From Thermodesulfobacteriota bacterium (lineage in GTDB: Bacteria; Desulfobacterota_D; UBA1144; Nemesobacterales; Mycalebacteriaceae), in assembly GCA_965205855.1 (NCBI GenBank), contig OZ242184.1, positions 1 through 64,000 on the forward strand: 64,000 nt of DNA, in the 5' to 3' direction. Below the pieces are notes generated by a model that worked only from the letters and a program-made list of their open reading frames with translations, was not told where the DNA came from and made no database searches. A program made the translations under genes and the position numbers. The number at the start of each line of letters is the position of its first letter. Position 1 is the first letter of the stretch. Below, piece after piece: positions 37,140 to 54,548 of the stretch.

Positions 37140-37775
37140 TTAAAATCTGACTTCCAATTTCGGGCCGATACTCAGTCCCCAAATATCGTCAATACTGTTG
37201 TCATTTGTCCACAGCGAATAAACAAACTGTCCGTCAATACCTATTGTTGCTCTCTCGGAAACTGAAAAACCAAATCCCAATTTTCCGACAAATGGTATGG
37301 ATGTTGTGGCACTGATTTTATCTCCGACATCGTAGAAATTTACTCCGGTTCCCACTCCAAGGTTGAACTCTACCGAACCGTTTCCGGCTTTCAGAACCAA
37401 AAGGGCTGGAAGCAGAATATGGTTTAAAGTTTCTCCGTCCACAGTAACCATTACATTAGCCCCTCCGCTTGTACCCGTGACATCAAATTTGCTTGAACTA
37501 ACTGTCCATCTTGGTTCAAATTCCAGGGCAAAACTGCTTTCTCCGAGAAAAACTCCGAGTTTGGGAGCCAGATAAAAACCGTTTTCTTTTACTTCTACAT
37601 TCGTCACGGTAACGCTACCGATTGTCAAGGAACCTTTGGAATCCAATTTTTGATAGGCATACCCCGAACTTAAACCAAAATAAGCTTTTGGCGAACCTGT
37701 CTGAGCCTTTGAAATACAAAACGGAAAACCCGTCAAAAACAATACAGAAACAGCGAGAATTAAAGATTTTCTCAT
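37140..37775 (-). CDS. Outer-membrane beta-barrel protein (8-stranded, OmpW/OmpA-like)
   Basis: Signal peptide, amphipathic strands, C-terminal LEVRF. Confidence 0.8.
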   Translation of the reverse strand: MRKSLILAVSVLFLTGFPFCISKAQTGSPKAYFGLSSGYAYQKLDSKGSLTIGSVTVTNVEVKENGFYLAPKLGVFLGESSFALEFEPRWTVSSSKFDVTGTSGGANVMVTVDGETLNHILLPALLVLKAGNGSVEFNLGVGTGVNFYDVGDKISATTSIPFVGKLGFGFSVSERATIGIDGQFVYSLWTNDNSIDDIWGLSIGPKLEVRF

Positions 37776-37812
37776 TTGAAACCTCCGTTAATTTAGACTT
37801 GCACAGCTTTAA

Positions 37813-37952
37813 GGCGCCGGGCCTTGTCCACACCAAACGAAGGTTTGAAATGTTCCCGCCTATTCCCCAACGGAAGGGATCAAGCTCCCGCTTAGTCAGG
37901 TTTTCTATTTAGCAGGAGACCCGACAAAGGGTCTCCTTCGTTCAATGTGGAC
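37813..37952 (-). ncRNA. Structured leader element, copy B
   Basis: Minus strand: GUCCACAUUGAACGAAGG / CCUUCGUUUGGUGUGGAC terminal stem (3 G-U pairs), core ACCCUUUGUCGGGUCUCCUGCUAAAUA, tail AAGGCCCGGCGCC; promoter TTGACT-N18-TATAAT at 37988-37959. Confidence 0.75.
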
Positions 37953-38043
37953 GTTGCAATTATAAGGTAAGAAAACCGGATAAGTCAATTAAAAAAAAAG
38001 GTTTTTCCATTTTCATCCGGCTGACGGGCGAAGAATATCTAAG

Positions 38044-39285
38044 TTAATTCCGCATAAAACTGTAAAGATGTCCTCCGATTTCGGAGTTTTTCAGTTTGTT
38101 CAGAGAGTGCTTCTCAATCTGCCTGATGCGTTCGCGCGTCAGGTCAAACATCTTGCCGATTTCGTCAAGTGTAAATGTTCCCGAATGGTCTATGCCGAAA
38201 CGCAGTTTGATTATCTTCTCTTCCCTTTCGTTGAGATGGAGTTTCAACGCCTCGCGCAGTTTTTCCGAAAGGTCGTTTTTTGCCATAAGAGAGTCCGGAA
38301 CCAACTCCTCCTGATCCGGAACGGAATCAAGCAAAGTGGCGTTCTTGCCCTCAAGAATAGGTGTGTCAAGACTTATGGCGTCGTTTGTTGAGTTCAAAAT
38401 CCTTTTCACAACCTCAATGGTTATTCCAGATTCCTCGGATATCTGTTTCGGAGTCGGCTTTCTGTCCAGTTTTTTGGAAAGTTTGGCAACCGTTTTATAT
38501 ACGCGATTCGCCTGCTCAAGCAGATAAACCGGTACCTTAATTGTTCTGGTCTGCCCCTGAAGCGCCCTGAGTATGGCCTGATGTATCCACCATGAGGCAT
38601 ATGTTGAAAACTTGTATCCCTTTGTGTGGTCAAACCTCTCGACCGCTCTCATAAGTCCGAGATTGCCTTCCTGAATCAAGTCGGGCAGGGGAAGTCCCCT
38701 GTTTGTGTATCTCCTTGATATTGTTATCACAAGCCTCAGGTTGGCTTTGACAAATTTCTGTTTCATCCTCTGCGCCTTTTTTTTCTGGGCAATTCGCGCC
38801 AGCTTCCAGAGAACTTCTATTCTTTTGTTATATTCGGTCTTTTTCGCGGAACTTCTCGACATTTTCGTCTTTTTGACAAGCCGTTCAATTTTTGTAAAAT
38901 TTTTGTATGTTTTGTCCTTTTTTCTGTAGCTCCAGTCAGTATCTTCCGCGACCGCTTCGTATTTTTTTATCTTGGACGATATCTCAACTTCCTGCTTCGC
39001 TGTGAAAAGATCCTCCGAAGACATGTCCTTGAAATAAACATAAAGAAGGCGCATATGCTCATCTGGGCTGAAATCAGCCTTCTTTTTCTTTGTTTTTAAG
39101 GCTTCAAGAAAAACCTGGGCCGGAGGAGGTTCGGGAAAGTCATCGTCCGGAGAATTAGCGGTTCCCCCTATTTTCCCAAATTTGACTTCACTGTCCTCAT
39201 CCTCAGCAACGGACGATGCCTCAGATTCCAAGCTCCGGGAGTCATTTTTCATGTTTATCTTAAGTTTTTTTTCCTTATCTGACAT
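38044..39285 (-). CDS. Sigma70-family RNA polymerase sigma factor (RpoD/RpoS-like, lacking a typical region 1.1)
   Basis: NLRLV, DLIQEGNLGLMRAVERFD, FSTYASWWI, TLDEIG..TRERIRQIE. Confidence 0.9.
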   Translation of the reverse strand: MSDKEKKLKINMKNDSRSLESEASSVAEDEDSEVKFGKIGGTANSPDDDFPEPPPAQVFLEALKTKKKKADFSPDEHMRLLYVYFKDMSSEDLFTAKQEVEISSKIKKYEAVAEDTDWSYRKKDKTYKNFTKIERLVKKTKMSRSSAKKTEYNKRIEVLWKLARIAQKKKAQRMKQKFVKANLRLVITISRRYTNRGLPLPDLIQEGNLGLMRAVERFDHTKGYKFSTYASWWIHQAILRALQGQTRTIKVPVYLLEQANRVYKTVAKLSKKLDRKPTPKQISEESGITIEVVKRILNSTNDAISLDTPILEGKNATLLDSVPDQEELVPDSLMAKNDLSEKLREALKLHLNEREEKIIKLRFGIDHSGTFTLDEIGKMFDLTRERIRQIEKHSLNKLKNSEIGGHLYSFMRN

Positions 39286-53448: not shown

Positions 53449-53571
53449 AGTCTTTTCTCCATTAATAGGCGCGGGGTCGCACTAGAAACTGAAAGACTAT
53501 ACTAAATAGGCACGGAAAAAGGTCAAGAAGCGGAAAGATGCTGAAGTGTTCGCACGGTTTGTTTTATAATG

Positions 53572-53714
53572 GCCTTGTTCACTACTCAACAGGAAACCCT
53601 TTGTCGGGTCTCCTGCTAAATAAAAGAATCGATACGGCGTGGATTAATTACCCGCGCTGGGAAATAAGCGGGAACTTCTTGACATCTGTTGAGTAGTGAA
53701 CAAGGCTTGGCACC
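53572..53714 (+). ncRNA. Structured leader element, copy D
   Basis: Perfect 21-bp inverted repeat 53572-53592 / 53686-53706, core ACCCTTTGTCGGGTCTCCTGCTAAATA, tail AAGGCTTGGCACC; TATAAT at 53565. Confidence 0.75.
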
Positions 53715-53739
53715 TGTTACCAGTAGCCAATGTCAACAG

Positions 53740-54548
53740 ATGTTCAAAAACCAGACAATCTGGACTGGCGACAACCTTCCGATTATGAGGGGATTTGAGG
53801 ATAACTGCATTGACTTGGTATACCTTGATCCGTTCCCATAGGAAGCGAAGCCGCTGGCGCGGCGTTCAAAGATACTTGGACACTGGACGATGTGGATATC
53901 GCATGGCACGACGAGATAGGCGCAAAATCTCCCGCTCTCTACTCGGTAATAGAAACCGCCGGACATGTCTACGAAAACGGAATGAAATCATATCTGATTA
54001 TGATGGCAATCCGTTTGCTTGAAATGAGACGGATACTGAAAGAAACGGGAAGCGTCTATCTGCATTGCGACCCAACAGCGAGCCACTACTTGAAATTGCT
54101 TATGGACGCGGTTTTTGGAAAAAACCGTTGGAAAAACGAAATAATTTGGCACTACAACACAGGTGGCGCAACTAAAAAACGGTTTAGCAAAAAAACATGA
54201 CACAATCCTTTTCTATTTCTCAAAAGGAACAAAGGCTTTTAACACTCAAAGAGAACCCTACAGAGAAGAAAACACAAACCATTTCAGAGAAACAGATGAA
54301 GACGGAAAAAGATACAGAATCAGGAAAGTTGCGGGGAGAAAATACATTTATTATTGAAGACAAGGGCAGAGTTTGCCATGATGCTTGGGATAGGTACCGT
54401 CAATGCTGTTGCAAAAGAACACAACGGCTACCCGACCCAAAAACCTCTTTTTTTGCTTGAGCGCATAATCAAAGGAACAAAAACAATGCAGGAAGCAAAA
54501 GCGCAGTTCCACAAAGAAACCGGACGCGCCATCAAACCCCGTCTTTAA
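53740..54548 (+). pseudogene. N6/N4 DNA methyltransferase pseudogene
   Basis: MFKNQTIWTGDNL...IDLVYLDP then a stop at 53839 (DPPF motif disrupted); AFKDTW, GSVYLHCDPTASHYLK, NEIIWHY and GYPTQKP..LLERII lie in different frames; no SAM-binding FxGxG motif follows. Confidence 0.85.

Follow-up and report, generated by a model that had tools for sequence, protein, structure and literature searches.

We found that a 64,000-nucleotide (nt) stretch of DNA from a Thermodesulfobacteriota bacterium (contig OZ242184.1, positions 1 to 64,000; hereafter the window) carries members of a previously undescribed family of structured RNAs, which form the 5' leaders of genes and are confined to Dadabacteria-type genomes, those of a small set of bacteria of marine type. 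Three full-length leaders, B, C and D, lie within the window. The genome, which is 98% complete, has five full copies (B, C, D, E and F) and one truncated copy (A). Copies E, F and A were found by a motif scan, and a covariance model (R1) built on the five full copies (alignment A2) matches all six; copies E and F are located outside the window, at approximately 350,376 and 652,478 in genome coordinates. The order of elements in the family is a promoter, a 5'-terminal helix (P1), a three-way junction made up of a hairpin (Pa), a P2/P3 arm and a single-stranded segment (J), a further hairpin (P4) and a strong Shine-Dalgarno (SD) sequence. In addition to the family and its structure, our computations revealed complementarity between the leaders and the ribosome-binding sites (RBSs) that follow them, an excess of this complementarity over chance, and mutually exclusive folds. 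We give about an even chance to the reading that the leaders of this genome, and those of the B and F lineages, are cis-acting three-strand switches of the RBS.

In such a switch, three strands would compete: the P1 5' strand, the RBS, and J together with the P1 3' strand, which would constitute the anti-RBS strand. By default, the RBS-like P1 5' strand would hold the anti-RBS strand within P1, so that P1 is closed, the RBS open and translation ON. Removal, trimming or sequestration of the 5' strand, or a loss of stability at the junction, would then allow the anti-RBS strand to fold over P4 onto the SD and AUG, turning translation OFF. The conserved core would be the natural site of a common input, for which a ligand, a protein and a nuclease are all candidates. 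We infer that the switch is used in cells and that the core responds to one shared signal.

Complementarity of the leaders to their own ribosome-binding sites

The pairings put forward in the original prediction were recovered in all three leaders of the window, whose segment coordinates were checked base by base and then relocated by script (Table 1). In leader B, 16 of 17 positions are paired between the segments 37852-37836 and 37789-37773, with 15 Watson-Crick pairs, one G-U pair and one C/C mismatch. The helix found by RNAduplex is longer than was first claimed, comprising 24 pairs over 28 nt (-22.9 kcal/mol; partner 37773-37799) and having as its limits the outer end of the P1 3' strand and the G of the start codon, with P4 at the tip of the resulting anti-RBS hairpin. 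The P1 5' strand of leader B has an inner end that is both purine-rich and SD-like, and the RBS strand is a diverged direct repeat of the 5' strand; we propose that this 5' strand may act as an "anti-anti-RBS" in cis. Leader D (anti-RBS energy -18.1 kcal/mol) pairs at 11 of 11 positions between 53682-92 and 53733-43, an exact reverse complement that covers the AUG at 53740-42. In leader C (-19.5 kcal/mol), CUUCUCA (40271-77) forms seven pairs, one of them G-U, with UGAGGAG (40322-28), and GUUGGG (40282-87) forms six with CCCAAC (40314-19).

To set these pairings against chance, we used as null set 791 starts of the same genome, each with an SD-like tetramer upstream and an open reading frame (ORF) of at least 100 codons (790 or 791 nulls per copy for the ungapped score and 791 for the RNAduplex energy). 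Since the nulls are themselves SD-bearing starts, the generic SD match is already discounted. The ungapped score was reached by 0/790 nulls for B, 0/791 for D, 1/791 for F and 5/790 for E, and the RNAduplex energy by 12/791, 12/791, 8/791 and 1/791, respectively. The complementarity in B, D, E and F therefore exceeds chance beyond the generic SD match, whereas by the same counts leader C, taken on its own, is marginal.

Gene-matched pairing was also compared across the family, using the 48 of 67 family hits that have an SD-bearing start nearby. Cognate duplexes averaged -12.26 kcal/mol, compared with -10.47 kcal/mol for non-cognate ones (n=48, permutation p=5e-5), and with our own copies and the B and F orthologues removed the means were -11.16 and -10.18 kcal/mol (n=40, p=0.01); both p-values are inflated by kinship. 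Clearly gene-matched leaders, in the top tenth by both row and column, numbered nine of the 48, compared with about 0.5 expected if rows and columns were independent. The tailored helix is found in the genus of this bacterium and at scattered loci including L008, L014, L028, L052 and L075. Much of what is shared more widely is less specific: J pairs with the SD at -4.86 kcal/mol, compared with -2.70 kcal/mol for shuffled J, and in 37 of 48 leaders at most 20% of shuffles did as well. J alone was rejected as a gene-matched anti-RBS strand, its percentile against other SD-bearing starts having a median of 0.34, with only 3/48 at or below 0.05. Across the family, only a generic anti-SD character is thus shared, by J and by the inner part of the P1 3' strand; the extension that matches the gene is an elaboration of particular lineages. 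We read this as a generic anti-SD strand that was extended in some lineages into a gene-specific helix, with the RBS flank made to resemble the P1 5' strand.

These same properties invite the explanation, which we consider quite unlikely, that the complementarity is incidental and has no regulatory use, the longer matches being relics left when leaders were copied in front of new genes, through gene conversion or local duplication involving the 5' strand and the RBS region. The inner eight nt of P1 are 73% purine in the 5' strand and 71% pyrimidine in the 3' strand; because the inner 5' strand is purine-rich and SD-like throughout the family, its partner strand would fit any strong SD, as would the generically anti-SD J, and non-cognate pairings do already average -10.5 kcal/mol. 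The direct repeat in leader B would also be expected of a relic, as would the decay of the pairing in the orthologues of D and E and its retention by D in front of a dead gene, both described below. However, the SD-bearing nulls have already removed the generic match, and a residual signal persists when our own copies and the B and F orthologues are left out. In addition, the match runs into J opposite the spacer and AUG, where there is no counterpart in the 5' strand, and simple duplication is therefore insufficient. The B and F lineages, moreover, keep the helix through substitutions on both sides.

Folding and conservation of the predicted switch

In the minimum free energy (MFE) fold of the full-length RNA, P1 was formed and the anti-RBS helix absent in all five full copies. 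In B, D, E and F, the P1 3' strand is part of both P1 and the anti-RBS helix, and the two helices are thus mutually exclusive. When the P1 5' strand was barred from pairing, the RBS paired with J and the P1 3' strand, folded back over P4, and the unpaired fraction of the RBS fell to 0.06 in B, 0.19 in F, 0.31 in E, 0.31 in C and 0.12 in D. The predicted cost of this OFF state, as a free-energy difference (ddG), was 3.9 kcal/mol for B, 5.3 for F and 6.0 for E. When the 5' strand was deleted altogether, the probability of pairing between the RBS and J/P1 3' strand was 0.91 in B and 0.82 in F, and no shuffled-strand control occluded the RBS as well; removal of only the first 7 nt of leader B occluded it likewise. 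Mutually exclusive folds that would gate the RBS were predicted for B, F, E and D, and in 9/48 leaders family-wide, being absent or weak in most others.

The truncated copy A, a paralogue of leader C, is a natural deletion variant. Behind its promoter it retains Pa, part of P3 and a relic of the P1 5' strand; the SD and AUG of a lipoprotein gene follow directly, and the P1 3' strand, the tail and the anti-RBS strand are all missing. Such a variant should be constitutively open.

Conservation of the helix differed among lineages. In the B lineage it was kept in 3/3 members (-22.9, -13.7 and -23.5 kcal/mol), and a change of two bases appears in all three strands, the P1 5' strand, P1 3' strand and RBS reading AACGAAGG, CCUUCGUU and AACGGAGG in one form and AAAAGAGG, CCUCUUUUU and AAAAGGAG in the other. 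The F lineage also kept it in 3/3 members (-15.8, -16.3 and -10.4 kcal/mol), and there too the three strands carry changes that match. No more loci related to the B gene were found in a search of metagenome contigs for its orthologues, and a B/D-type DNA pattern gave no match in such contigs; the five weak matches that were examined proved to be diverged family members, orthologous to neither B nor D.

Several observations weigh against the three-strand switch. In leader C, the part that pairs with the SD sits in J (40270-78) and not in P1, so that P1 is not excluded by it, exclusion of P1 being limited to the 6-bp part; furthermore, 271/790 nulls reached its ungapped score, which is not above chance, and 19/791 its RNAduplex energy. 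The ddG of the OFF state was 12.5 kcal/mol for C and 17.2 for D, with a range of 0.5-25.4 over family members, and on these energy parameters the modelled states of B, E and F are close enough in energy to switch, whereas those of C and D are not. P1, which the MFE folds of all five full-length RNAs contain, has a mean of -23.9 kcal/mol, roughly double the mean of -12.3 kcal/mol for the anti-RBS helix, and is the much stabler of the two in most members; on deletion of the 5' strand many leaders showed no occlusion beyond that of shuffled controls. The partner of leader D is the start of a pseudogene and has no SD. The helix has been lost in the one orthologue of E (L006; -8.2 kcal/mol) and in both orthologues of D (L033 and L007; -8.8 and -8.4 kcal/mol). 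Clear gene-matching is limited to the nine of 48 leaders given above, 13/48 being worse than the median both ways, and one genome (G018) shows no tailoring in any of its seven copies. Finally, the related genomes are not independent, and the permutation p-values therefore overstate the evidence.

Taken with these points, the observation in the original prediction is confirmed and its interpretation as a switch is borne out in part. That each full-length leader is tailored to its own gene describes this genome, with C as a weak case, but not the family. The check proposed with it, persistence of the complementarity in homologues, gave a divided answer, the B and F lineages retaining it and the orthologues of D and E, like most of the family, not. 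The mutual exclusivity of P1 and the anti-RBS helix was upheld by the shared strand and by folding in B, D, E and F, but in C not beyond the short segment just described. Likewise, the proposal that a formed P1 leaves the RBS free agrees with the predicted folds of all five copies, and the converse, that a disrupted P1 blocks it, with those in which the 5' strand was barred, although for C and D the blocked state appears too costly. The logic of a riboswitch expression platform is apparent in the mutually exclusive folds, but "riboswitch" is only an analogy here, as no ligand is indicated.

The RNA family, its anatomy and the genes that follow it

Model R1 had matches in 21 of 61 related genomes; in a sample of 120 genomes from the phylum, 33 had a match. 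By group, the latter sample gave 5/5 for f1, 24/37 for f8, 2/5 for f3, 1/33 for f2, 0/15 for f7 and 0/19 for f9. An exact-pattern scan of one genome per species found 31 loci, nearly all in metagenome-assembled genomes (MAGs) titled Thermodesulfobacteriota bacterium or Candidatus Dadabacteria. Three pattern matches (L057, L068 and L075) were in MAGs titled Poribacteria, Cyclobacteriaceae and Alphaproteobacteria; two of their contigs are short, at 6.5-8 kb, the other measures 117 kb, and all three may have been mis-binned. At L075, the P1 3' strand has a 13-bp perfect match to the sequence abutting the SD.

Covariance-model scans with Rfam 15 gave no match to the leader, and membership of any Rfam 15 family was rejected. 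Over the whole window at gathering thresholds, the scan matched only two tRNAs (Table 1), and the region 37700-40450, searched at E<=10, gave only two noise hits of 14 and 13.3 bits, far below gathering scores. Literature searches on Dadabacteria combined with riboswitch or RNA motif listed nothing on such an RNA, the single match being a paper on carbon fixation, and a broader, badly framed search listed no paper that names Dadabacteria.

Table 1. Coordinates of the leaders, their genes and other features in the window
Feature	Position	Strand	Details
Truncated leader A	30601..30697	+	Paralogue of C; 37.6 bits; AUG 30686
Gene downstream of B	37140..37775	-	211-aa protein, N-terminal signal peptide
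Leader B, RBS strand	37773..37799	-	SD GGAGG 37782-37786; AUG 37773-37775
Leader B, tail and P4	37801..37825	-	Conserved tail AAGRCCCGRCRCC 37813-37825; local hairpin P4
Leader B, anti-RBS strand	37826..37854	-	J 37844-37854; P1 3' strand 37826-37843
Leader B, conserved core	37855..37934	-	Pa hairpin 37917-37934; P2/P3 arm with conserved internal loops 37855-37916
Leader B, P1 5' strand	37935..37952	-	18 nt; MFE partner 37826-37843
Leader B, promoter	37959..37988	-	-35 TTGACT 37983-37988; -10 TATAAT 37959-37964
Leader C, promoter	40161..40187	+	-35 TTGACA 40161-66; -10 TATATT 40182-87
Leader C	40197..40295	+	P1 5' strand 40197-40212; Pa 40214-40228; P2/P3 40231-40269; J 40270-40278; P1 3' strand 40279-40295
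Leader C, tail and P4 hairpin	40296-40315	+	CCCAAC 40314-19; followed by SD 40323-29, AUG 40338-40
Gene downstream of C	40338-40706	+	122-aa lipoprotein
Leader D	53565..53701	+	-10 TATAAT 53565-70; P1 5' strand 53577-53592; Pa 53592-53613; P2/P3 53612-53672; J 53673-53685; P1 3' strand 53686-53701
Leader D, tail and P4 hairpin	53702-53730	+	Next strand 53733-53743 (pairs with 53682-53692), AUG 53740-42
N6_N4 DNA methylase remnant	53740..54200	+	Frameshifted; 33-codon ORF from 53740; second piece 53892-54197 in another frame
tRNA gene	56112-56182	-	Rfam match
tRNA gene	61890-61961	+	Rfam match

The anatomy of the family was examined in an alignment of 54 hits (A3), with sets of 63 leaders for the pairing of the P1 strands and 50 for the tail/P4 and upstream ORF (uORF) tests. 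Leaders C and D scored 104.8 and 105.4 bits, respectively, with the covariance model, and leader B has an extra insertion in P3. By eye, most of the 54 members have a sigma-70-type -35/-10 pair 6-9 nt before the first base of P1 (6 nt between the end of the -10 box and P1 in leader B), and on account of this spacing the RNA would start at, or within a few nt of, P1. P1 itself has a median length of 17 bp and differs in sequence at every locus, yet is always paired: cognate strands averaged -23.9 kcal/mol and non-cognate ones -8.2, and the cognate strand ranked among the top three partners in 57/63 leaders. In the core, 5/5 pairs of P2 and 3/3 pairs of P3 vary on both sides, and the family structure beat all 500 shuffles and all slid controls. 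J has the single-stranded consensus AACNUYYAAA. In most of the 50 leaders, the conserved tail forms the local hairpin P4 with the next 15-25 nt, and columns 155, 160 and 162 of P4 alternate between A-U and G-C. The family thus has, in its 5' untranslated region (UTR), the conserved structured domain with covarying helices by which riboswitches are recognised. In the 39 hits measured, the start codon lies 14-78 nt past the tail, or 14-57 nt except for D, for which the automatic pick is spurious.

The tail may also pair elsewhere: 93.7% of tail and Pa 3' strand cells are pairable, with purines always opposite an invariant U, and 7/10 of the pairs vary on one side only, so that a pseudoknot of these two strands is a candidate rather than an established structure. 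Pa and P4 are also alike, the Pa 5' strand resembling the tail and the P4 3' strand resembling the Pa 3' strand (A3 columns 22-43, and 152-166 plus the sequence downstream); judging from this likeness of sequence, a strand-swapped pairing or a two-site platform for a protein is conceivable.

Such features raise the question of whether the leader works mainly by means other than the opening of P1, the anti-RBS match being a dispensable addition in a few lineages. It could, for example, provide a 5'-terminal stabilising helix that protects abundant mRNAs of envelope proteins, a docking site on which a protein recognises both Pa and P4, hairpins that resemble each other, or a switch in which the P4 hairpin alternates with the pseudoknot formed by the tail and the Pa 3' strand. 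In accord with a function of this sort, P1 begins at or near the inferred transcription start and is far more stable than the alternative helix, and what the family conserves is Pa, P2/P3, J and the tail with P4 rather than the anti-RBS match, tailoring being missing from most members; the extensive pairability of the tail with the Pa 3' strand points the same way. It would, however, leave unexplained why four of the five copies in this genome fall in the top 0-0.6% of the genome-wide null and why three strands co-vary in the B lineage. As for the pseudoknot, most of its pairs vary on one side only, and its placement beside a 17-bp P1 looks sterically awkward. Overall we regard a function other than P1 opening as rather unlikely.

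The genes behind the leaders mostly appear to encode exported proteins. An uncharged 11-residue stretch within the first 40 residues, resembling a signal peptide, was present in 37 of 38 leader-gene proteins, compared with 107 of the 791 background starts of this genome; only a pilin-like protein, which has an N-terminal methylation motif, lacked it. A lipobox-like motif was found in 15/38. Pfam names few of these proteins (OMP_b-brl in three, YadA_head, DUF2085, ankyrin, PEGA and N_methyl), and a Pfam search with the protein encoded downstream of leader B gave no match, OMP_b-brl being matched by genes of paralogous leaders elsewhere but not by this protein. The leader genes are also rich in strong SD sequences, with AGGAG in 35/48 and GGAGGTT in 10/48, compared with 133/791 and 17/791 background starts, respectively, in what is a cross-genome comparison. 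DNA methylase is the only non-exported gene class seen behind the leader. In the remnant that follows leader D, the PF01555 match (E=2.3e-8) is confined to the second piece, and the association of leader and methylase recurs in two other genomes of the genus, at L033 and L007, with intact-looking methylase orthologues. Elsewhere in the genome, a regex scan revealed three near-identical stretches of more than 250 nt (approximately 537,480, 552,290 and 584,120) in coding-looking sequence, which are probably repeated domains of large surface proteins.

A gene set of this kind could be taken to indicate a phylum-restricted class of riboregulators, in which one three-way-junction sensor for a single signal gates many unrelated genes for exported proteins (secreted proteins, lipoproteins, porins, pilin-like proteins and adhesins) while the 5' strand mimics each RBS. 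The signal could then be the status of the envelope or of secretion, c-di-AMP or another small molecule. We think this broader proposal doubtful. The gene context, exported proteins, points to no metabolite, and although the genome has one DAC (c-di-AMP cyclase) domain, nothing ties it to the leader.

Relation to known regulators and biological meaning

The principle of the three-strand switch has precedents. Adenine-type ON riboswitches have translational platforms with a shared switching strand, and the leaders resemble them in being closed by a P1 whose 3' strand alternatively pairs with the SD and AUG, so that a formed P1 means an open RBS. They differ in that their P1 has a median of 17 bp, rather than being a short and marginally stable helix, in having no Rfam match, and in that the alternative helix is gene-matched in a subset only. 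The 5' UTR of rpoS is a self-inhibited leader opened by small RNAs (anti-antisense control). As in rpoS, an upstream strand of our leaders would sequester the RBS in a long imperfect hairpin and a third RNA strand would free it, but here the releasing strand is in cis, at the 5' end of the mRNA, and is the default partner, such that regulation would be by its removal and not by its supply. Stem-loops of the ompA type are 5'-terminal stabilisers of mRNAs for outer-membrane proteins; the leaders share with them a helix at the putative extreme 5' end of envelope-protein mRNAs, but add a three-way junction, the P4 hairpin and an anti-SD strand.

The GEMM-I and c-di-GMP-II regulons are similar in that a genome has several copies, located before genes for diverse surface proteins, pilin-like proteins and adhesins, whereas our leaders have no Rfam match and the genome has no GGDEF domain, and sensing of c-di-GMP was rejected on these two grounds. 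A CsrA titration site was likewise rejected, there being no CsrA in the genome. An RNA thermometer does not fit the MFE folds of the five full-length leaders, in which P1, the stronger helix, is formed and the anti-RBS helix is not. An inverton or a miniature inverted-repeat transposable element was dismissed because the P1 arms vary from locus to locus (mean identity 0.40 over the first 14 nt) around a conserved interior, and the promoter is situated upstream of the repeat, not within it. A leader-peptide (uORF) attenuator was discarded as well: about half of the 50 leaders have an in-frame start close to the conserved block, the peptides are 4-50 long and their sequences are not conserved, and the 1-nt indels in the leader alignment also argue against it. 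Nor is P4 an intrinsic terminator, a U-run following it only in F and L025 (by eye).

What is new, therefore, is mainly the RNA family and its association with exported proteins; the principle of the switch is of a known kind. That one RNA structure should be tied to exported proteins is unusual in itself, and this link opens the input of the core to probing and reporter assays. Should the ordinary reading alone be correct, the leaders would be a new structured family with a generic anti-SD strand, useful for annotation and conventional in mechanism. If the switch is real, they would represent a candidate post-transcriptional regulon of the cell envelope in an uncultivated, small-genome lineage with few recognisable regulators, and a natural modular design in which a constant sensor is combined with a helix rewritten for each target RBS.

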